DNA of 64,000 nt from an uncultured Gemmatimonadales bacterium (GTDB taxonomy: Bacteria > Gemmatimonadota > Gemmatimonadetes > Gemmatimonadales > GWC2-71-9), in assembly GCA_963705985.1 (NCBI GenBank), contig CAVPLK010000003.1, positions 67,745 through 131,744 on the forward strand, written 5' to 3'. This document shows, piece by piece, positions 47,029 through 56,561 of the stretch; the first letter of the stretch is position 1; every line of letters begins with the position of its first letter. Position numbers and translations under genes: made by a program. The notes beneath the pieces are model-generated. The model had not been told where the DNA came from. It saw only the letters and a list, made by a program, of their open reading frames with translations, and made no database searches.

Positions 47029-48461
47029 CAGTTGCTCCCTCCCGCGGACGTCACGTAGCCGAGTTCGAAGTCGGTTCGCCACCGCTCGGTGGGGTCAGCG
47101 CGGTCGTAGAGCAGCGCGCCGTCGATCCAGACCTTCTCGGCGTGGGTGTAAATGCTGAACGGGTTCCCGGACCAGAGGACGATGTCGGCGTTCTTCCCGA
47201 CCTCGATCGATCCGATCCGGTCGTCGAGGCCCAGCGCCCAGGCAGGATTGATGGTCATCCACTCCACGGCGTGGTCCTCGGAGATGTCGAGGCCGGCGGC
47301 CCGCCCTGCGGCGAGCGCCTTGGCCGTCTCCTGGTTGAGCCGCTGCGCGAAGGACTCGTCGTCGGAGTGGGTGATGGCGCGCGCACCGGCGTGATCCACC
47401 AGCGCGATGTTGGCGGGGATGCCGTCGAGCGCCTCCATCTTGAATCCGCCCCAGTCGGCCCAGAGCGAACCCGCGATCCCCTCGGTGGCGAGCACGTCGG
47501 CGATCTTGTAGGCCTCGACCCCGTGGTGAAAGGAGCGGATGGAATAGCCGAACTCCTTCGAAATATCGATCATCTGCATCATCTCATCGGCACGGTAGCA
47601 GTGGTTCTGCACCAGGATATTCCCGCGCAGCACCTCCGAGAGGGTTTCCAACGCAAGGTCTCGCTTCGGCGGGGTCTTCGTCGTGGGTTCCGCCCAGTAC
47701 TCGTCCCACGACCGCCGGTACGCCTCGGCATCGATCCACGCCTGTCGGTAGCCGGCCACGTTGCCCATCCGTGTCTGCGGTCCGCCCCGATCGCCGTACA
47801 CCCGTTTGGGGTTTTCCCCGCAGGCCATCTTCAGCCCGTACTTGGCCCCGGGGAACTTCATCCCCTGCACGCTGCGGGAGGGCACCACCTTGAGCGTGAC
47901 GCCGCGTCCGCCGAAGAGGTTCGCCGAGCCGGGCAGGACCTGCAGCGTGGTGACGCCACCGGCCAGGACCCGTGGAAACTGGGGATCCTGCGGCCAGACC
48001 GAGTGCTCGGCCCAGACGTACGCGGTGTTCGGCTTGACCGCCTCGTTGCCATCGCTGTGGGATTCCACGCCCGGGGCGGAATAGACGCCGAGATGGGAGT
48101 GGGTGTCGATGATGCCGGGGGTGACAAACTTGCCGGCGCCATCGACGACCACGGCATCGGCGGGTGCCGCCACCTGCCCGCCCACCGCCACAATCTTTCC
48201 GTCCTTCATCAGCACCGAGCCGTCCACGATCCGTGGGCCGGCCGCAGTCAGAATGGTGACATGCGTGATGACCGTCGGGCGGGAAGGGAAGGGCAGGTAG
48301 GTGCTGGGGAAGGGATTGGCGTTGGGGAGTGAGACGCCGCCGGGCCCTGGCGGGGTCTTCGGCATGCTGTCGCGCCGGGCGGAGTCGGCGCTGGCGCGCT
48401 GGGCGAGGAGGGGACCCGCCGAGGCAACGGCGACGGCGAGAATGAGGGCTAGTCGGCGCAT
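47028..48461 (-). CDS. secreted amidohydrolase-family protein
   Basis: Signal peptide. HSH metal motif (IIDTHSHLG), imidazolonepropionase-like amidohydrolase core. Confidence 0.82.
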   Translation of the reverse strand: MRRLALILAVAVASAGPLLAQRASADSARRDSMPKTPPGPGGVSLPNANPFPSTYLPFPSRPTVITHVTILTAAGPRIVDGSVLMKDGKIVAVGGQVAAPADAVVVDGAGKFVTPGIIDTHSHLGVYSAPGVESHSDGNEAVKPNTAYVWAEHSVWPQDPQFPRVLAGGVTTLQVLPGSANLFGGRGVTLKVVPSRSVQGMKFPGAKYGLKMACGENPKRVYGDRGGPQTRMGNVAGYRQAWIDAEAYRRSWDEYWAEPTTKTPPKRDLALETLSEVLRGNILVQNHCYRADEMMQMIDISKEFGYSIRSFHHGVEAYKIADVLATEGIAGSLWADWGGFKMEALDGIPANIALVDHAGARAITHSDDESFAQRLNQETAKALAAGRAAGLDISEDHAVEWMTINPAWALGLDDRIGSIEVGKNADIVLWSGNPFSIYTHAEKVWIDGALLYDRADPTERWRTDFELGYVTSAGGSN

Positions 48462-48495
48462 GGCGTGCTCGACCTCTGGCGTGGTGAATGCAAGC

Positions 48496-48522
48496 GGGGG
48501 AGCGCCCGATGGACGCTCCCCC
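48496..48522 (-). terminator. hairpin after the cytochrome c gene
   Basis: GGGGGAGCG / CGCTCCCCC 9-bp stem, 9-nt loop, weak T-tract. Confidence 0.35.
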
Positions 48523-48557
48523 AACCTATGCCCACCAGGTCGAATCGGCCACTAGGC

Positions 48558-49097
48558 CTACTTCAGCTTGGCGGCCTGCAGTTCGTCCCAGGTCCAGGGG
48601 GCGGTGCGGCCCGCGGTGGCCGATCGGACCGCCGCCACCTCGGCGGCAGTCACTGCGGAGGCTGCGTTGCCCCACGAGGCCCGAACATACGTCAACGTGG
48701 CGGCGATATCGTCATCGCTGAACTGACCCCAGGCCGCCATCGCACCGTTGTAGGTGGCCCCGTGCACGGTCAGAGGGCCCTGCATCCCGTGCAGGACGAT
48801 GGCAATGGGGACCTCCGCCGGGCCGGTGGCGATCTCCGAACCGGCCAGCGGCGGGAAGGCGTTGGGCACGCCCTGGCCTTCCGCTTGGTGGCAGGTCTGG
48901 CAGACGGCGTACTGCCCCTGCGGCATGGCCGCGGGAGTGGCGGGGGCGGCGGAGGCCGCCTCGGCCTGGGGGGCTGCTTCCTGCTTCTCGCCGCCGCAGG
49001 CCGCGAGGACGAGGGCGAGCGCGCCCAAAGTGGTGGTCCTGCCCAGGGAGGTCATCGTGGCTGTTCCTTTGCGCTGATCGGGGGTCGAGAGACTCAT
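48558..49097 (-). CDS. c-type cytochrome lipoprotein (class I, mono-haem)
   Basis: Lipobox LVLAAC, haem motif CQTCH, distal Met region YNGAMAAWG. Start shares one nt with the MbnH-like stop. Confidence 0.85.
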   Translation of the reverse strand: MSLSTPDQRKGTATMTSLGRTTTLGALALVLAACGGEKQEAAPQAEAASAAPATPAAMPQGQYAVCQTCHQAEGQGVPNAFPPLAGSEIATGPAEVPIAIVLHGMQGPLTVHGATYNGAMAAWGQFSDDDIAATLTYVRASWGNAASAVTAAEVAAVRSATAGRTAPWTWDELQAAKLK

Positions 49098-50254
49098 CAG
49101 GGGTTGGCCGGCGAGCCCTTCGGCCAGGGGTTGGAGAACGCCGGGTTGGTGATGAATGTAGAGTCAGTGAGGCTCCGGAGGAATGCCAGCACATCCGCCC
49201 GCTCAGACGGACTCAGGTCAAACCCGACGAGGAAGCCGCTCTTGTACGGGTTGGCGCTGCCGACTCCGGCGTGCGGGCCGCTGGCAATGGTCCGCCCACC
49301 CGCCATGTAATGGTCCAGGACCTCATCAAGCGTCGCGATGCTGCCGTCGTGCATGTACGGGGCGGTCAATGCGATGTTCCGGAGTGACGGCGCCTTGAAC
49401 CGACCCATGTCCTGCGGAAGCCCGGTGAACTCAATCAGTCCGACGTTGGGCGCCGGGTATCTGCCGAGCCCGTCGATGTTGTACAGGGCGTTGTTGTGGA
49501 ACTCCTTCTCCGCGAAGCCTTTCCCCTCGTAATCCGTCGAGCCGGTGAAGTTGAACCCGCCATGGCAATGGAAGCACTCCAGCCGTTCGCTGAAGAACAG
49601 CTCGCTCCCGCGCTTCGAGGCGGCCGAGATGGCGAGCGGTTTCCCCTGGCGCGCGAACCGGTCGTATGGCGAATCCCCCGAGATGAGGGTGCGCTGGAAG
49701 GCGCCCAGCGCGCGCGTGATGGTGGCGACCGAAATGGACGCCGTGTCCCCAAAGGCGGCGGGGAAGAGGCGCTGGTAGAGCGTGTCGGCCCCGAGCCGGT
49801 TGAAGAGCGCCGTTTCCTGGCCGGAGAGGCCGAGCTCGATGGGCGACTCGCCGAACATCGGCGTGAGGGCCTGGTGCTCCAGCGCCGTTTCGTTCGGATT
49901 CGCCCAGGTCAGGACCGAGGCGTACCCGGCGTTGGTCAGCCCCATGCTATTGCGGGGGTGGACCATCCCCGTGGCCCCGATCCCGGTGAGATTGGAGTCC
50001 GCGAACGCCCGCCGCTGCTCGTGGCAGGACGCGCACGAGAAGGTGCCGGTGACGGACATCCGGGCGTCGTAGAACAGCCTCCGGCCAAGCTCCACCTTCT
50101 CCACCGACATCGGGTTGTCCGCCGGGACCCTCGGCTGCGGGAACCCCGCGGGGAGGTTCCACTGGAACCCCGTCACGCCCGGCGCCGTGGGACCGTCCTC
50201 CGCGCAGGCGAGGAGGACGGCCGCGGCGGCCAGGAGGAGCAGCCGCCTGGTCAC
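49097..50254 (-). CDS. mbnH: MbnH-like di-haem cytochrome c peroxidase family enzyme
   Basis: Two CxxCH motifs (CASCH, CFHCH). RFKAPSLRNIALTAPYMHDGS motif of the bacterial CCP/MauG/MbnH family. Directly downstream of an MbnP-like gene (GTGA overlap). Confidence 0.8.
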   Translation of the reverse strand: MTRRLLLLAAAAVLLACAEDGPTAPGVTGFQWNLPAGFPQPRVPADNPMSVEKVELGRRLFYDARMSVTGTFSCASCHEQRRAFADSNLTGIGATGMVHPRNSMGLTNAGYASVLTWANPNETALEHQALTPMFGESPIELGLSGQETALFNRLGADTLYQRLFPAAFGDTASISVATITRALGAFQRTLISGDSPYDRFARQGKPLAISAASKRGSELFFSERLECFHCHGGFNFTGSTDYEGKGFAEKEFHNNALYNIDGLGRYPAPNVGLIEFTGLPQDMGRFKAPSLRNIALTAPYMHDGSIATLDEVLDHYMAGGRTIASGPHAGVGSANPYKSGFLVGFDLSPSERADVLAFLRSLTDSTFITNPAFSNPWPKGSPANP

Positions 50255-51111
50255 GGGGCGCTGCTCCTGAAAAGGGCCTGCGTGGGGAGTGGGGAGCCGT
50301 CAACGGCGGAGACGCCGAGCGCCGGCAGGATGGCGTCGCACTCGGGATCGGTGGTGCCCGACATGCAACCCGGCGCGGCGGTGTTCACATCCACGTTCGA
50401 GGAGGCGTAGAACTCCCCAACGTCCGTAATGACGAGGTCGCTGGCGACGTCAAACACCGGCAGGGAGATCTCGGCCATGTTCAGGTTGGTGCAGGCGGTC
50501 GGCGGGTCGGTCGGCGAGGCGCCGTTGCAGCCGGTGCTACCCAGATGGACGTACCAGCCGGTGGGCTGGCCGGTCGTGCCGACATCGAGGCGGAGAAACT
50601 TGTACCCGCCGTTCCAGCTCCAGAACATCTCGGTCAGATCCAGCGGCGAGGCGGCGGTGGTCGGATCCGAGTGGTTGAGCGCGAAGGGAACGCCGAGCGT
50701 GAACTTCAGGCCGGTGTAGCTCCCCTTCGCGACCGTGCCAGTCACGACGGTCCGCGTGGCCGCGGTCCCGTTGGCGCATCCCGGAGGACCGTTCTCGAAG
50801 TCCACCAGCGCGACGCCCTTTGACTGCCACGGCGCCACGCTGTCGAGGGTCACGGCGACTTCATCGCCGTTGGCCTGCACGAGGCGGACGTTCGTCACGT
50901 ACATGCGGAAATCGGTCGGCGAGATGGTCGAGCCGGTCGTGCCGATGTTGGCGTACGACTGGCCGCAGGCGAAGGCGACGCCGTTGACCTCGGCGGCGAA
51001 CTGGACGGAGACGGCCTCGGTCTGGGTGGGGTCGGTCGTGGAGTCGCTGCAGGCGACGACGAGCAGGGCTCCGACACAACCGAGGGCGGCGGCGCGGGTG
51101 AAATGCGACAT
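50251..51111 (-). CDS. mbnP: MbnP-like (metallo-mystery pair, multi-Cys) periplasmic copper-binding lipoprotein
   Basis: Lipobox LLVVAC. Motifs FACGQ, DFRMYVTNVRL, WSWNGGYKFLRLD, STGC...C as remembered for MbnP. GGAG lies 9 nt upstream of ATG 51111. Confidence 0.7.
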   Translation of the reverse strand: MSHFTRAAALGCVGALLVVACSDSTTDPTQTEAVSVQFAAEVNGVAFACGQSYANIGTTGSTISPTDFRMYVTNVRLVQANGDEVAVTLDSVAPWQSKGVALVDFENGPPGCANGTAATRTVVTGTVAKGSYTGLKFTLGVPFALNHSDPTTAASPLDLTEMFWSWNGGYKFLRLDVGTTGQPTGWYVHLGSTGCNGASPTDPPTACTNLNMAEISLPVFDVASDLVITDVGEFYASSNVDVNTAAPGCMSGTTDPECDAILPALGVSAVDGSPLPTQALFRSSAP

Positions 51112-51238
51112 TGGGGTAGCTCCGGGAAAGGCATAAGACATCGGCCGACCGGGGCGCGCACGCCGGTCAGGCGAGGCGTCCGGTCACTGGGACCGACGAC
51201 GAATTGTCAGCGGGGGAGCGCTGTTGGGAGAGTAGCGC

Positions 51239-51619
51239 TCAGGCCTGCGAGGGGGGAGGCTGCGCCAGGTGAAGGGTGAAGTCCGGACGGAGGTACGGAC
51301 GAACCTGGACTTCGGGGAGGATGCTGACGCCCAGCGCCACCACCACGGGCACCACCTGCACGGTGGTGGTGGGGAGGCTTGGGGCCGCAGCCGAACACGA
51401 CATGCCCACACACTGGCAGTCGCCGGGGCGTGGCGCCGGGGCTGGTTCGTCCGTCGGGTCGTGCGAATGGTGGCCCGCCATCGCTGCCATCGGAGGCGCG
51501 CCTTGCGTCGCTTCCATCCCGCAGCCGTGGAAACGCCCGGGCGCTGCCGAGCCCGCCGTGAAGGTCACGGCGAGGAGGAGGCTGAGCATCCATTTTGACG
51601 GGCGAGGGCGCATCGGCAT
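51239..51619 (-). CDS. small secreted Cys/His/Met-rich protein (function unknown)
   Basis: Signal-like MRPRPSKWMLSLLLAVTFTAGSA, then HGCGME, MAAMAGHHSHD, CQCVGMSC. Start uncertain (ATG 51619 or 51613, TTG 51634). Confidence 0.5.
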   Translation of the reverse strand: MPMRPRPSKWMLSLLLAVTFTAGSAAPGRFHGCGMEATQGAPPMAAMAGHHSHDPTDEPAPAPRPGDCQCVGMSCSAAAPSLPTTTVQVVPVVVALGVSILPEVQVRPYLRPDFTLHLAQPPPSQA

Positions 51620-51817
51620 TTCGGTTCGGGTCAAAGACTATTCATTCAAATATCGCGAGGGACCGGCAACGATCGCAACCCTTCAGGGTGACCGGCCGAT
51701 GTCGGCGAGGCGACCCCGTGCCTCGCTGTTTGTCGAATCCTGAGCAATGGCCTCCCAATAGGCGGCGATTGCGATAGGGAGCAGGGATGGGAGCTGCAGG
51801 GAGCCGCCTCGGTGGTT

Positions 51818-51858
51818 GTGGCAAAGAGCAGCGCCTCCCCACACGAGGAGGCGTGCTC
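51818..51858 (-). terminator. rho-independent terminator after the OMP gene
   Basis: Minus strand GGAGCACGCCTCC-loop-GGAGGCGCTGCTC followed by TTTG. Confidence 0.55.
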
Positions 51859-51890
51859 CGGGCAGTTAGGAAGCCGTCGCCGCGTCCCGA

Positions 51891-52451
51891 TCAGAACCAG
51901 GTGAATCCGAGTCCAAACTGGAAGAGGTGCAGCCGTGCGTCGACGACGCTCTCGCCGGTATCCGAGTAGCGGTAGGAGCCGCCGAACTGGCTCACGTAAT
52001 TGACGTAGGGCGACAACGCGAAATTCCGCGCCAGCCGGAAATCGTAGCCCGCGCCGATCGAGCCGGCGAATCCCGACGTCGAGAAATACGTGTAGACGGT
52101 GGAATAGGAGTATCCGAGCCCGGCCTTCAGGTAGAGCCCCTGATCGACCATCGGGTACCACTGTGCCACGCCCATGATCGCCCCGAGGGTGGGGGCGTCA
52201 TAGGCGTTGCTGCTCCCGACCCAGCCGTTGGTCTCCGCGGCCAGGAAGAGCGAGGGATTGAGGTACCCGCCGAGCCTGAGATAGCCGGAGAGCTCGGTGC
52301 TGGCCAGCTCGTCGCAGTCGTCGCAGAAGTTGGCGCTGCCGGCGCCGAGGCCGAGGCTGATGCCGAATCCTTGCCGGGTCTGGGGGTGCTGCGCCGTCGC
52401 GACGACCGGCAGCAGCATGAACAGGGTGAGAACTGCGGTGATGCGCTTCAT
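51891..52451 (-). CDS. small outer-membrane beta-barrel protein
   Basis: Signal peptide ending ATAQ, alternating Gly/aromatic strands, C-terminal GFTWF. Confidence 0.75.
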   Translation of the reverse strand: MKRITAVLTLFMLLPVVATAQHPQTRQGFGISLGLGAGSANFCDDCDELASTELSGYLRLGGYLNPSLFLAAETNGWVGSSNAYDAPTLGAIMGVAQWYPMVDQGLYLKAGLGYSYSTVYTYFSTSGFAGSIGAGYDFRLARNFALSPYVNYVSQFGGSYRYSDTGESVVDARLHLFQFGLGFTWF

Positions 52452-52526
52452 TGTGTGCCTCCCGAGTATGGGTCAGGCGGCGAGATGCCGCTGCACCCAT
52501 GCTGGGAGGGGTCCGTCAAGCGAGCG

Positions 52527-53561
52527 TCAAGGCGCCTGAAACCAACTCCCGACCTTGGGAAGGAGGAACTCGCTGATGCGTTGCCGCTGCATGTCCACAT
52601 GCCCACCCGTATAGGCAACGACGGTGTTCGGAATCTGGGCGTCGTCCAGAGCCGCCGCCAGGGCGAGGGACCCTGGTACAACGCTCAGCGCCCCGTCCTG
52701 CAGGCCGAACTCGATCACAATGGTCGGCGGCGGGCCCGGTTCGGCAACGAGCGTCGAGATGAGGCCGATCGGCATGCGGGCCTCCCACCGGGCCTGTACC
52801 TCCGGGACTGGCTGCAACTGCCCCGCGGAATCGGGCTCGAAAGGAAGCGTTCCGTACCATCGCCCGGGGCCCGGGGCGGGGGAGAGCGCCGCTGCCAGTG
52901 CGACCACAAGCGCGGTACCGCGGGGCGCTCCCGCAACCGGCCACGAGGTAGCCGCGGCCGCCGCGGCCCATGCCGGGCTCGCGGGAGAAAGATCTCCCAC
53001 GAAGGTGGCGCAACAGGGACTCATCGCGTAGAGCATCCCGAACAATTCAGGGTGCGCAAAGCCGAGGACGAGCGTGCCGAACCCTCCCATCGAATGCCCC
53101 GCCAGCGCGCGACCACTCCGCTCCGGAATGGTACGGTATCGGCCGTCGATGAAGCCGAGCAGGTCGTGCACCACGAAGGCGGCCCAGCCGCCGGTGGTCG
53201 GAGAGTCGGCGTAGAAGCCGCCCCCAAGCTTCGTGTCCACGTTCGGGATCACCACGATGAACTCGTCGATGGCGTGCGCCGCGATGAGACTGTCCATCGC
53301 GACCCGAAGGTCGAGACCGTCGTAGGTGCCGTCGAGCCACTCCTCCGGGGTGGAGGTGGTGCCGTGGAGCATGTAGAGCACGGGGTAGTGTCGGCCCGGA
53401 GCCGTCCGGTACGAGGGCGGCAGGTAGATGACGACGTCGCGGACCGGGCTGTCCCCTGTCAGGTTGCCGTTGAGCGCAGCGGACCGCAGGGAATCATGGA
53501 CGATTCGTCCCTGCCCCCACGCCGGAGCGGTGAGGAGCACGAGAGCCAGCAGTCCCGTCAC
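52527..53561 (-). CDS. secreted alpha/beta-hydrolase ('putative esterase' family)
   Basis: GHSMGGFG nucleophile elbow and YPVLYMLHG motif. GTG start. Confidence 0.8.
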   Translation of the reverse strand: MTGLLALVLLTAPAWGQGRIVHDSLRSAALNGNLTGDSPVRDVVIYLPPSYRTAPGRHYPVLYMLHGTTSTPEEWLDGTYDGLDLRVAMDSLIAAHAIDEFIVVIPNVDTKLGGGFYADSPTTGGWAAFVVHDLLGFIDGRYRTIPERSGRALAGHSMGGFGTLVLGFAHPELFGMLYAMSPCCATFVGDLSPASPAWAAAAAATSWPVAGAPRGTALVVALAAALSPAPGPGRWYGTLPFEPDSAGQLQPVPEVQARWEARMPIGLISTLVAEPGPPPTIVIEFGLQDGALSVVPGSLALAAALDDAQIPNTVVAYTGGHVDMQRQRISEFLLPKVGSWFQAP

Positions 53562-53577
53562 GCTGCGCAGCGCCGAT

Positions 53578-55149
53578 CTACCGCTCCCGCAGCCAGTCCG
53601 AGCGATGCTTGGCCGCCGCCAGGCCCGACAGCAGCAGGGTGGCCACCAGATAGCCGATCCGCGTTGAGCCGGTGGCCACCCCGTTCCACCCCGCGAAATC
53701 GAGTCCTGGTGTCTGCCCGCCGTTCAGGACCAGGTAGAGGAAGAGGAGGAACACCCCCATGAACGCCTTCGGCGTGCGTGACAGGAACCCGAGCGCGGTC
53801 GCGAGCGCGGCCATGAACCCGGCCGCAATGAGGAGGGAGAGCGCGGCGCCGGGGGAACCGAAGGCGATCCGAAGCGCCGGTGGAAGGCAGAACAGGAGCG
53901 CCAGGAGCGTCGCCGCCCCCATCTTGATCCAGGCATACGCCGGTTGCACCCGCGGCATGCCGAACAGCATCCCGAGCGTGCCCGCCGCCCGATCACGGGT
54001 GGAGAGGTCCGCAAGGGCGATGGCAAGGATGACCGCGACCACAAGCGGGAGCGTGTGGTGCACGGTGGCATCGGTCCCGACAGCTGTGGTCGCCAGAACC
54101 CCGAGCCACGCCAGCAGGATCAGCGGCGACTGGCACAGGGTCATGACCGTTTCTGCGAGCACCGGCCGGATGGCGGCGGGCGCGGCGGGCACGATGGAGG
54201 CTCCCGCGGCAGAGACGGGACGCGTCAGTGGCTTGAGGGCCAGGGAGAGGCGAGGAAGCAGGCGCCCACCTGAACCCTGGTCGCGTCCCCGCACTTTGGC
54301 CGGGTCGAACCGGTGAAACGAGAGACGGGCCAGCAGCAGCACTGGGATGGCGAGCAACGCCGTCGCAAGCCGGGGGATCAGCAATCCTGGAGCGAGCGAG
54401 AGGGCCGGCAGCAACCACGGATTGACGCTCGGGTCGAAGGGCGTCATGCCGATGGAGAGGCTCTGGGCACCTGTGGCCCCGTTGACTTGCCGGAGTACGA
54501 AGCCGATGCCCAGGACATCGAGAAACTGATCGCCGCCACCCTGCGCGCCGATAGCCCCGAGGGCCAGCAGAAAGGTCCAGAGGAAGAAGTACCCCACATC
54601 GCCGAGGCGGCCGGCAAGCAGCGGGACGCATTCGAAGCAGAGGGCAAGCGCCGCGACGACGAGTACCGCCGGGCCGAGAATGACGAGGTAGGTGAGGAGA
54701 TAGGTGATCGGCTCCAGCGCCCCCTCGCCACGGAGCAGGTGCATGGCCATCACGTTCAGCAGGTAAAACAGTCCCACCATCCCGAGGTAGGCGGCTCCGC
54801 CCAGCCACTTGCCCACGAGGTAGCGCAGCGAACTGACGGGCGTGGCGGCAATGATGCCGCCGGTTCGCGCCAGCAGGTCGCGGCGGAGGGCGTTGCTGAT
54901 CAGGTAGAAGCCCACGAACGTCAGCAGAAACCCGGCAAGCGCCGCCGTCGTCGTCGCGATGACCTGCGAGGTGTAGAGCGCGCGTGCACCGTTGACCACC
55001 ATCAGCGCGGAGCCGGTGGCGAGGTCCGGAATCAGCATGTACGCCATCCCGGAAAGGGCGACCACCAGCCAGAGCGTGGCGGGGCGGCGGAGCCGGAGCT
55101 TCAGGTCGGTGAGGACGATCGAGCCGATCTGGCCGGATGCCGAGGACAC
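53578..55149 (-). CDS. large polytopic ABC exporter permease (unclassified)
   Basis: 523 aa, about 12 hydrophobic helices, GTG start 3 nt after the stop of the ATPase gene. Confidence 0.7.
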   Translation of the reverse strand: MSSASGQIGSIVLTDLKLRLRRPATLWLVVALSGMAYMLIPDLATGSALMVVNGARALYTSQVIATTTAALAGFLLTFVGFYLISNALRRDLLARTGGIIAATPVSSLRYLVGKWLGGAAYLGMVGLFYLLNVMAMHLLRGEGALEPITYLLTYLVILGPAVLVVAALALCFECVPLLAGRLGDVGYFFLWTFLLALGAIGAQGGGDQFLDVLGIGFVLRQVNGATGAQSLSIGMTPFDPSVNPWLLPALSLAPGLLIPRLATALLAIPVLLLARLSFHRFDPAKVRGRDQGSGGRLLPRLSLALKPLTRPVSAAGASIVPAAPAAIRPVLAETVMTLCQSPLILLAWLGVLATTAVGTDATVHHTLPLVVAVILAIALADLSTRDRAAGTLGMLFGMPRVQPAYAWIKMGAATLLALLFCLPPALRIAFGSPGAALSLLIAAGFMAALATALGFLSRTPKAFMGVFLLFLYLVLNGGQTPGLDFAGWNGVATGSTRIGYLVATLLLSGLAAAKHRSDWLRER

Positions 55150-55151
55150 GC

Positions 55152-56009
55152 CTACGCCCCTGTCTGCATCAGGTGGACAAAGGCATCCTCGAGATCCGGC
55201 TCCACCACCGAGGCCGAGGCGAACGGCTGCGCCGCGGCCACCACCCTCACATGGACTCCGTCGGCTTGCCGGACAGCGCGCGTCACCTTGAGCCGCCCCT
55301 TCGCCTGCTCGTACTGCGCGGACGGAACCACCGCCTGCCAGACCTGTCCGCGTGCCGACTGGAGCAGCGCCTCGGGTGCGGCGCAGGTCACCAGTCGCCC
55401 CTCCCGCAGCACGGCGATGGTATCGGCCAGGGACTCGACGTCGGAGACAATGTGCGTGGACAGCAGGACGAGCTTTCCCTGGCCGAGGTCGGTGAGCAGG
55501 TGGCGGAACCGTACCCGTTCCTCGGGATCGAGGCCGGCGGTCGGTTCATCGACGATGAGCAGGGCAGGGTCGTTGAGGAGCGCCTGGGCGATGCCGAGCC
55601 GCTGCCGCATGCCGCCGGAAAAGGTGGCGGCCTGGCGGTGTGCCACCGTGTGGAGATTGACCGTTTCCAGCAGCTCGTCAATGCGGCTCCGCGACGTGAC
55701 GCCCTTGAGCCCGGCGAAGTAGCTCAGGAACTCGAAGGCGGTGAGGTTGTCGTACACCCCAAAGTCCTGCGGCAGGTAGCCGAGCTGACGGCGAAGCGCC
55801 TCCGGCTCCTTGCGGACGTCCACTCCCTGGAACTCGATCTGCCCGTCGGTCGGTCGCGTGATGGTGGCCACCATCTGCATCAGCGTCGTCTTCCCGGCGC
55901 CATTCGGTCCGAGCAGTCCGACTACGCCGGCCTTGAGGTCGAGCGAGACGTCGTTGACGGCGGTGACGCCGCCAGCGAAGCGCTTGGTGACGTGGGTGAG
56001 TGTGAGCAT
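55152..56009 (-). CDS. ABC transporter ATP-binding protein
   Basis: Walker A GPNGAGKTT, signature SGGMRQR, Walker B LLIVDEPT. Confidence 0.93.
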   Translation of the reverse strand: MLTLTHVTKRFAGGVTAVNDVSLDLKAGVVGLLGPNGAGKTTLMQMVATITRPTDGQIEFQGVDVRKEPEALRRQLGYLPQDFGVYDNLTAFEFLSYFAGLKGVTSRSRIDELLETVNLHTVAHRQAATFSGGMRQRLGIAQALLNDPALLIVDEPTAGLDPEERVRFRHLLTDLGQGKLVLLSTHIVSDVESLADTIAVLREGRLVTCAAPEALLQSARGQVWQAVVPSAQYEQAKGRLKVTRAVRQADGVHVRVVAAAQPFASASVVEPDLEDAFVHLMQTGA

Positions 56010-56102: not shown

Positions 56103-56561
56103 CTATCGCAATTCGAGCCGATAGGCGGCGTGGCACGTCACACACGTCTCCGTGATCGCCGCCAGGCCCTCGATCGCCGCGGCGGGCCCTGCGGAGGCAT
56201 TCGCGGCCAGGGAGTCGAAGGCGCGGTGCGTCGCCATGCCGTATTGGAGGAAGCCGCCGGGGAGGATCTTCTCGAGTGTCGGATCGGCGGCCATCACCAG
56301 CCCGGACGCGGCGGCGGCCCGCTGGATGGCTGCCGTATCGGACTGCGCCGCGCCGGCCAGGACCCCCTGCACCGAGCTCAGCATGAGACGCATCTCGGCA
56401 AGCACGGCGTCCCGGGCCTCGATCGGGAGTGGGACCGCAGTCCGGCCGTCGGCGGACTCAGTGGTGACGGTCGCGGTCTCCGGTGCGCGGGTGACGGCGC
56501 GGACGGTCCACACGGTATTGGCCGCGGTCCAGAGGGCAAGGACGATCATGGCAGTGCGCAT
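56103..56561 (-). CDS. cytochrome c-prime-like (class II, C-terminal haem site)
   Basis: Signal peptide, four-helix-bundle-like sequence, and a single CVTCH eight residues from the C-terminus. Confidence 0.7.
   Translation of the reverse strand: MRTAMIVLALWTAANTVWTVRAVTRAPETATVTTESADGRTAVPLPIEARDAVLAEMRLMLSSVQGVLAGAAQSDTAAIQRAAAASGLVMAADPTLEKILPGGFLQYGMATHRAFDSLAANASAGPAAAIEGLAAITETCVTCHAAYRLELR

Follow-up and report, generated by a model that had tools for sequence, protein, structure and literature searches.

A putative copper-sensing leader peptide heads a stand-alone mbnP-mbnH locus of an uncultured Gemmatimonadales bacterium

In Methylosinus trichosporium OB3b, the first tryptophan of the WxW motif of the copper protein MbnP is converted by MbnH to a kynurenine (Kyn174) that is needed for copper binding. 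MbnP/MbnH pairs that stand alone, with no methanobactin operon around them, have been on record since 2013 and are widespread (PMC3621798). A similar arrangement is represented by MopE/SACCP and CorA/CorB of gammaproteobacterial methanotrophs, where a di-haem peroxidase gene likewise accompanies a copper-repressed copper protein with a kynurenine-containing copper site; that copper protein is, however, of another fold and family, and we claim no sequence relationship. Here we describe an mbnP-mbnH locus from a 64,000-nt stretch of DNA (contig CAVPLK010000003.1 of assembly GCA_963705985.1, positions 67,745 to 131,744; referred to as the window) of an uncultured Gemmatimonadales bacterium. The mbnP gene is preceded by a small Cys/His-rich open reading frame (ORF), termed here the leader ORF, which most likely encodes a copper-sensing arrest leader peptide of the CruR/CutF type and not a structural partner of the two proteins.

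The described leader peptides to which this ORF has to be compared belong to DUF2946. In Bordetella pertussis, CruR (Bp2923) was shown by Roy et al. (2022, PMC9426467) to be an upstream ORF that responds to copper. It is composed of an export signal, a CXXC motif, 45 residues, the sequence RAPP, three further residues, and the stop codon; it is followed by a 162-nt spacer, and it was reported to lack a confidently predicted fold (PMC9426467). Stalling of the ribosome at RAPP blocks Rho at a region richer in C than in G, and copper bound to the nascent CXXC relieves the stall, upon which transcription terminates (PMC9426467). DUF2946 genes were found as the first genes of operons for TonB-dependent receptors (TBDTs), PCuAC, Sco, CopC, and "MbnPH-like genes" in Proteobacteria, a few Planctomycetes, Firmicutes, and Deinococcus; the phylum of the window, Gemmatimonadota, is not listed in that survey (PMC9426467). 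In CutF, encoded by the cutFOG operon of Rhodobacter capsulatus, a CxxxC motif is followed by 45 residues and PPP, and it is the induction of stalling by copper that unmasks the ribosome-binding site of the next gene (Öztürk et al., PMC9973294, bioRxiv 10.1101/2025.02.05.636593). Both CutF and CopL are leader peptides of the DUF2946 kind by which the detoxification of copper is turned on (PMC9973294; bioRxiv 10.1101/2025.02.05.636593).

The window has a GC content of ~68%, and its closest relative is an uncultured Gemmatimonadales metagenome-assembled genome (L004) that shares 90.5% nucleotide identity with it over the mbn block. A reading of the window from its letters alone (the sequence-only reading) had assigned five genes on one strand to a single system, and all five are indeed present, on the minus strand, in the order outer membrane protein (OMP), leader ORF, mbnP, mbnH, and haem c lipoprotein, followed by two amidohydrolase genes. 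It had also recognized the MbnP/MbnH pair and named the accessions of the two family models, correctly in both cases: MbnP scored 270.5 bits against TIGR04052 (cut-off, 140) and MbnH 479.2 bits against TIGR04039 (cut-off, 362.85). In addition, MbnP matched PF20243 with 156 bits (1.4e-45; cut-off, 27), while the score of MbnH against the MauG model, 166.3 bits, was far under the cut-off of 443.85. When compared with solved structures, MbnP matched Methylosinus MbnP (PDB 7L6G) with E=8.5e-37 and MbnH matched Methylosinus MbnH (PDB 6E1C) with E=1.2e-118; the bacterial cytochrome c peroxidases (bCcPs) reached only ~1e-31, and MauG was also far weaker. Both CxxCH haem c sites of MbnH (CASCH and CFHCH) are present, and its GTG start codon overlaps the stop codon of the adjoining mbnP as GTGA, again as noted before. 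FWSWNGG of MbnP aligned with AWNWQAG of 7L6G, so that the WxW motif falls on Trp174/Kyn174 of the solved protein. In 36 homologues the two tryptophans of WSW (W174 and W176 in the numbering of the 296-aa ORF) do not vary, nor do H157 and H199; opposite M172 the solved 7L6G also has a Met, and most homologues have Leu there.

MbnP and MbnH of the window are thus genuine members of their families and form a stand-alone pair. They resemble the M. trichosporium OB3b pair in passing both curated cut-offs, in the aligned WxW, and in the adjacency and translational coupling of the genes, and differ from it in lacking a methanobactin operon or an adjoining TBDT and in residing in a Gemmatimonadales bacterium and not in a methanotroph. 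Searches with phmmer and Pfam among the ORFs flanking the cluster and the long ORFs of the window found no TBDT and no MbnB/C-type, SCO1, or PCuAC protein, which agrees with the sequence-only reading as to the missing methanobactin genes and receptor; the set that marks a methanobactin operon (MbnA, MbnB/MbnC, and usually MbnT, a TBDT) is not assembled at this locus. By homology with the Methylosinus proteins, MbnH would oxidise the first Trp of the WxW of MbnP to kynurenine, and this would create the Cu(I) site of MbnP, a periplasmic lipoprotein. To place the pair among its relatives, MbnP loci were scanned in one genome per species; 531 of 600 pattern matches were confirmed as loci, and 80 loci were kept for neighbourhood counts. 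MbnH directly follows MbnP in 76 of these 80. As another stand-alone pair, the MbnPH part of the locus adds nothing new in kind. The alignment of mbnH of L004 (L004:8888-10043) is broken into two segments that overlap and are read in different frames; this looks like a frameshift, possibly from a long-read assembly error rather than the mark of a pseudogene.

We then turned to the leader ORF, described in the sequence-only reading as a small secreted protein with the motifs HGCGME, MAAMAGHHSHD, and CQCVGMSC, all of which it contains. From its N-terminus it comprises a signal-peptide-like segment, the HGC motif, a His-rich stretch, CQCVGMSC, a spacer of 44 to 49 residues (depending on the Cys from which one counts), LAQPPP, the residues SQA, and the stop codon. 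By inspection, the N-terminal segment consists of an n-region, MPMRPRPSKW, and a hydrophobic part, MLSLLLAVTFTAGSAAPG; it is conserved in the family and modelled by AlphaFold2 as a helix. Outside this signal helix the model is mostly coil, with no confident fold (pTM 0.30). Among the window and the related loci L001, L003, and L004, dN/dS was 0.29 to 0.41 in the annotated frame, compared with 1.1 to 5.9 in the other two frames. Since it is low in that frame only, the ORF is selected as a protein, which rules out a spurious ORF of high-GC DNA. In the window and its close relatives the first 19 residues do not vary and the middle is variable, while the C-terminal RPDFTLHLAQPPPxQA shows, apart from synonymous changes, two conservative replacements only (D/E and T/S) across four relatives.

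A word-indexed homology search returned three relatives of the leader only, 72 to 100% identical to it, each directly upstream of mbnP. When 1.84 billion representatives were searched exhaustively with a profile, 23 small proteins of 110 to 156 aa that align end to end were added, and a degenerate DNA pattern for CxCVGH[AS]CC matched 46 stretches, 14 of which were true members of the family, from metagenomes, and the remainder chance hits. The sequence-only reading had left it in question whether the small ORF is conserved; to the purifying selection noted above can now be added a family of about 40 proteins. In an alignment of 26 sequences the invariant residues are C23 (of HGC), C58 and C60 (of CxC), P112, and P113; the HGC motif as a whole is invariant, and the third Cys of CxC-x4-C is usually conserved (CxCVGHxC). 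The consensus of the N-terminal part reads LLxLLLAVxFTANAxAPGxxHGCG, followed by a His-rich stretch and CxCVGH(S/A)CC, and that of the C-terminal part reads, after a variable stretch, RPxxLLP(L/F)AQAPP, 3 to 5 residues, and stop. The distance from CxC to PP, counted from the second Cys, is 50 to 52 residues in 37 of 42 sequences (46 residues from the third Cys), and the intervening sequence is poorly conserved despite its fixed length. The PP is found in 26/26 aligned sequences, is followed by 3 to 5 residues in 35 of 42, and is preceded in the form (Q/L/N)(A/G/P)PP, most members having APP or GPP and not PPP. Since the two motifs are held at a fixed distance, the Cys cluster would be just out of the exit tunnel at the moment the ribosome arrives at the prolines.

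The position of the family in its genomes points in the same direction. On every informative contig the leader-family ORF is the first gene, separated from the next by a spacer of about 60 to 210 nt (127 nt in the window). It is followed by a long MbnP and MbnH (L088, L090, and L107), by a TBDT, MbnP, and MbnH (L121, and in part L098 and L130), or by PCuAC, a cytochrome c, MbnP, and MbnH (L111 and L119). In other loci MbnPH is missing, and the leader ORF precedes a cytochrome c, CcmH, SCO1, PCuAC, DsbD_2, and a second family ORF (L093 and L122) or PCuAC and an Asp/Arg hydroxylase (L085 to L087). Across the family, the downstream genes serve acquisition or assembly (TBDT, PCuAC, SCO1, and MbnPH) and not efflux or an oxidase. 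In the genome set, a hidden Markov model (HMM) of the family found a leader ORF upstream of mbnP in all 8 Gemmatimonadota loci and also in L016. In a census for a CruR-like motif order (a Cys motif, 30 to 65 residues, x(A/G/P)PP, no more than 8 residues, and stop), 44 of the 80 MbnP loci had an ORF of this kind upstream and on the same strand; its form in Proteobacteria is CxxC, 41 to 45 residues, R(A/G)PP, and 3 residues.

Several further features of these loci were recorded. In L093 the second leader-family ORF (L093:4360-4881, ending RYRHPPALAPPLLPA) lies after DsbD_2 on the same contig, which suggests tandem leader-controlled copper operons, and several proteobacterial loci (e.g., L023, L037, L051, and L083) carry 2 to 4 DUF2946-like ORFs. 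The long MbnP (L088:612-1808; P0024, P0051, P0053, P0055, and others, 398 to 406 aa), which has an extra N-terminal domain of ~110 to 140 residues, is encoded in several of the operons that begin with a leader-family ORF. In ten loci of Acidobacteriota (L005, L012, L022, L046, L053, L059, L069, L072, L073, and L080), ~430 to 480 nt separate the aligned MbnP and MbnH regions; no convincing ORF was seen inside this gap, which is probably a C-terminal extension of MbnP or an N-terminal extension of MbnH, and some of these loci have leader-like ORFs with CxxxC and the ending RPPP or KPPP. In the window, the sequence ATATTT is found ~25 to 35 nt upstream of the leader start (51640-51660, minus strand) and is conserved in all five relatives; it is a candidate promoter element. 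A scan of 48000-53000 for the sigma-70 consensus found no promoter-like site.

In its layout the leader ORF is close to CruR. Both are small first genes with a spacer of ~45 to 50 residues before an xxPP motif that lies three residues from the stop codon, and where CruR has its export signal and CXXC the leader has a signal-peptide-like segment and a Cys cluster of another spelling, a putative metal site; both are followed by a long intergenic region and have a C-rich 3' region, and both head copper-acquisition operons that include MbnPH-like ones. Set against what CruR and CutF have in common, the leader family has the ~45-residue spacing between Cys and proline motifs and the place at the head of a copper operon before a long intergenic spacer, and QPPP-SQA puts the proline motif of the window three residues before the stop codon, although not in the exact spelling RAPP. 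The mRNA strand offers a further parallel. In a stretch made up of the final ~60 nt of the leader ORF and the ~40 nt of spacer that follow, C minus G amounts to +0.25 to +0.30, which corresponds to the ~97th to 99th percentile of all 60-nt windows on the same strand of the 64 kb (99th percentile, +0.283). By analogy with the C>G bubble of cruR, we consider this stretch a candidate Rho utilisation (rut) region.

Taken together, these features make it likely, though by no means assured, that the leader ORF, mbnP, mbnH, and the cytochrome c gene form a copper-responsive operon in which the leader is a CruR-like copper sensor acting in cis and copper represses, the cytochrome being an accessory and the OMP unrelated. 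At low copper, the ribosome would pause at QPPP, three codons before the stop codon. The paused ribosome would sit on the C-rich last part of the leader and exclude Rho, and mbnP, mbnH, and the cytochrome c gene would be transcribed. Copper bound to the nascent Cys/His motif would relieve the pause, the ribosome would terminate, and Rho would stop transcription within the 127-nt spacer. Through pause relief and Rho termination, copper would in this CruR-like mode repress an operon for copper acquisition or handling. We infer the sign of regulation, and favour the copper-repressed one, from the C>G bubble, the Shine-Dalgarno sequence of mbnP, which is unpaired in the single-sequence fold, and the uptake and assembly functions of the targets.

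Several observations weigh against this interpretation. The window leader ORF has no Pfam or NCBIfam match, DUF2946 included, even at E<=10, and it does not reach the gathering score of PF11162. An hhalign comparison of the leader family with 44 proteobacterial DUF2946-like ORFs aligned 12 N-terminal columns with 19% probability, and the HMM of the leader family recovered none of those ORFs. CruR needs the Arg of its RAPP, and the family has Q, L, or N in that place (AQPPP in the window; AQAPP in the family consensus), and the Cys motif is CxC-x4-C, with an N-terminal HGC, and neither CXXC nor CxxxC. The PPP of the window is like that of CutF, where copper-induced stalling switches the downstream gene on, and this makes the sign of regulation less certain. 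The invariant HGC and the His-rich segment could act in a mature periplasmic peptide, and the spacer contains a conserved hairpin, not statistically supported, for which the model does not account. On the other side, 12 of 26 leader-family members match PF11162 at E<=1, the best of them (P0127 with 23.3 bits and P0135 with 23.2 bits) over the whole length of the HMM and just below the gathering score of 23.7. As the hhalign result is not significant and family HMM and hhalign do not connect the two groups, the case for homology to DUF2946 is made by these near-threshold Pfam matches and the shared architecture. The leader family of the window probably works like CruR and CutF and is a probable divergent branch of DUF2946.

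A tentative alternative, clearly less likely than the CruR-like operon, is that the leaders of the Gemmatimonadota type are a distinct, unrecognised branch of metal-sensing arrest peptides that, in this phylum, may control a regulon coupling kynurenine copper sites of the MbnPH type with the recurrent cytochrome c lipoprotein. The signature of such a branch, outside Pfam DUF2946, may be HGC, CxC-x4-C, ~51 residues, LLP(L/F)AQAPP or QPPP, 3 to 5 residues, and stop. Since these peptides do without the Arg of RAPP, the way in which they stall the ribosome may be another one. The cytochrome could in that case be the reductant of MbnH, a reductant of Cu(II), or a copper-sparing electron carrier.

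We next considered whether the leader could act in the manner of CutF, copper on the exported nascent Cys motif prolonging the stall at PPP, remodelling the RNA of the spacer, and inducing mbnP, mbnH, and the cytochrome c gene at copper excess. The leader has a putative Sec-type signal and an upstream Cys in the mature region, as CutF does, the PPP and three residues of the window resemble the GPPPRL of CutF, CutF likewise acts in cis, and the peptides are predicted to be unstructured or degraded. The spacer moreover contains a nearly invariant GC-rich block with TGACCGG direct repeats and a GACCGG...CCGGTC inverted repeat, which is more conserved in four relatives than the middle of the leader ORF. 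The hairpin predicted for the spacer, however, had a z-score of -1.83, with 10 of 200 shuffled sequences folding equally well, and showed no covariation, and a structured regulatory RNA element is thus unsupported; the block could be a pause site, a protein operator, or a structure. It lies ~30 nt upstream of the Shine-Dalgarno sequence of mbnP (GGAG, 9 nt before the called start), which is left unpaired in the single-sequence fold, and a consensus fold of four sequences shows weak pairing of two of its bases. The 127-nt spacer and the C>G bubble are cruR-like, most members of the family have APP or GPP instead of PPP, and the targets, MbnPH in the window and acquisition or assembly genes in the family, contrast with the genes that CutF-like leaders typically precede, which are for efflux or an oxidase. 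We therefore regard regulation of the CutF kind as unlikely here.

The cytochrome c lipoprotein was seen in the sequence-only reading as the electron partner of MbnH, and we asked whether mbnP, mbnH, and the cytochrome c gene could be a three-component module in which it is dedicated to the O2- or peroxide-driven conversion of Trp to kynurenine. The protein is a bona fide cytochrome (36.6 bits against PF00034; cut-off, 21.3) with the haem motif CQTCH and the lipobox LAAC. Its reported 1-nt overlap with mbnH (TGATG) exists for the maximal ORF; the called gene, to which the overlap does not apply, starts at ATG 49055, where its homologues also start, with AAGGA upstream, a normal lipoprotein signal, and a 41-nt spacer from mbnH. 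It lies on the same strand as mbnH and is probably co-transcribed here, and it may pass electrons to MbnH or to copper. Small c-type cytochromes are generally the electron donors of bacterial di-haem peroxidases. Homologues occur inside the MbnPH operons L111 and L119, and an independent cytochrome c, the sole other CxxCH protein in the otherwise heterogeneous genes downstream of mbnH and unrelated to that of the window, follows MbnH in L053. Fusions of an N-terminal class I cytochrome c to a C-terminal MbnP also exist (P0093, 438 aa, and P0102, 430 aa); as their haem domains are not close relatives of the window cytochrome, they do not qualify as a "Rosetta stone" for it and lend weak support only.

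The wider distribution of the cytochrome speaks against such dedication. It belongs to a large Gemmatimonadota family (1020 matches at E<=1e-10), and no homologue of it follows MbnH in the other 79 genome loci. Two related Gemmatimonadales genomes, L134 and L135, have an orthologue of 85 to 87% identity after the same ABC ATPase (87%) and permease (67 to 71%) as those of the window (53578-56009), and no MbnPH. In L003, whose MbnP is 87 to 88% identical to that of the window, the leader, mbnP, and mbnH are intact, but the cytochrome has suffered an internal deletion in which the CxxCH region is lost and 88 aa are left (L003:2675-2983). Family members are also found with SCO1, PCuAC, or CopC in the absence of MbnH: right after the leader ORF with CcmH, SCO1, and PCuAC in L093 and L122, and before CopC in L137. 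In L071 a homologue is divergently placed and stands behind a weak leader-like ORF of its own, the neighbouring L082 having a partial copy only. A dedicated partnership with MbnH is therefore doubtful, and the cytochrome is an accessory neighbour, from a family loosely associated with copper trafficking, and not an obligate component of the MbnPH system.

Least likely of all is the proposal of the sequence-only reading that the small exported protein is a trans-acting metallochaperone or a second substrate of MbnH, the products of all five genes working as one machine. Its richness in soft-metal ligands, the invariance of HGC and CxC-x4-C across the family, the putative export signal, the purifying selection, and the constant company of copper genes would suit such a role. 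But the family also heads operons without MbnH, so that it is not in general an MbnH substrate, it is always the first gene and followed by an intergenic spacer of 100 to 190 nt, the strict distance to a PP 3 to 5 residues before the stop codon has no rationale in a chaperone, and the middle third is poorly conserved and there is no confident fold. CruR and CutF, whose layout it shares, exert their effect in cis and, once exported, are degraded or escape detection, and neither the OMP nor the cytochrome c is conserved as a partner.

The OMP, which the sequence-only reading had counted as part of the system and provided with its own terminator, is probably a neighbouring gene outside it, in a separate transcription unit. 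Homologues of the OMP flank the locus only in the closest relatives, L002 and L004. The OMP block is 76% identical to L004 at the nucleotide level, compared with 90.5% for the mbn block, and the upstream esterase region is wholly different. In L002 (1239-2000) and L004 (6627-7460) the OMP gene and the leader ORF are separated by a gene for a secreted di-haem cytochrome c of 253 to 277 aa (CPFCH and CRTCH; PF02276 match) with C-terminal tetratricopeptide repeats (TPR). The 825 nt of this gene in L004 correspond to 175 nt in the window, with ~25 C-terminal codons recognisable: the tail of the ORF at 51683-51844 (YWEAIAQDSTNSEARGRLADIGRSP) resembles the C-terminus of the 277-aa protein of L004 (YRQAIALDPANDEARARLKEIGRAP). 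Since the intervening gene is intact in the relatives and reduced in the window, the adjacency of the OMP and leader genes is the product of a local deletion. The terminator-like hairpin after the OMP gene (51853-51832) is one of 3 found in 5 kb, where chance alone would give 2.1 +/- 1.6, and is not above chance.

The flanks of the cluster contain the amidohydrolase pair, a 2-hydroxyacid dehydrogenase, an esterase, the ABC ATPase and permease, and a cytochrome c'. In L134 (2446-5495) and L135 (2476-5495) the ABC ATPase, permease, and cytochrome c genes are contiguous, and an OMP homologue lies ~2.5 kb further on. As this order is contiguous there, the esterase-OMP-leader-mbnPH segment of the window sits between genes that adjoin each other elsewhere (window, 48558-56009); an insertion or rearrangement, in either direction, accounts for its position. 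Just upstream of the ABC transporter genes is the gene for the 152-aa cytochrome c' family protein (56103-56561, minus strand; PF01322, with a C-terminal CVTCH), for which no link to the mbn genes has been established. The features of the locus are collected in Table 1.

Table 1. Features of the mbnP-mbnH locus, in window coordinates
Feature	Coordinates	Strand	Basis
OMP, small beta-barrel, 186 aa	51891..52451	-	PF13505 4.9e-10
Remnant 3' end of di-haem cytochrome c/TPR gene	51683..51760	-	C-terminal resemblance to L004 277-aa protein
Leader ORF, ATG 51621, 126 aa (start used by gene callers: ATG 51589, 116 aa)	51239..51621	-	dN/dS, family architecture
C-rich, G-poor stretch, candidate rut region	51200..51300	-	C minus G in 60-nt windows
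GC-rich hairpin/repeat, nearly invariant	51147..51185	-	Conservation in four relatives
mbnP lipoprotein, called gene from ATG 51111, 286 aa (maximal ORF to 51141)	50251..51111	-	TIGR04052, PF20243
mbnH, MauG-like di-haem enzyme, 385 aa	49097..50254	-	TIGR04039
Mono-haem class I cytochrome c lipoprotein, 165 aa (maximal ORF to 49097)	48558..49055	-	PF00034

The sequence-only reading held the combination of genes to be undescribed. This does not apply to the regulatory arrangement, as MbnPH-like genes behind DUF2946-type ORFs are already known (Roy et al. 2022, PMC9426467); what is new here is a divergent leader family, without the Arg, with CxC-x4-C, and from Gemmatimonadota, of a known regulatory class. 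That the small protein is a metallochaperone or a substrate was a plausible assignment, and it is corrected as probably wrong. For the role of MbnPH outside methanotrophs it is relevant that a leader-type ORF is present in 44 of 80 loci, from different phyla, and in each of the Gemmatimonadota loci sampled: because the pair is so often headed by an ORF for a putative CruR-like nascent-chain copper sensor, it would be tied firmly to copper-regulated acquisition. The QAPP/QPPP family with CxC-x4-C and no Arg is, moreover, a natural variant with which to ask which features of RAPP-type leaders are essential, and it bears on how the binding of a metal to a nascent chain sets the sign of regulation.

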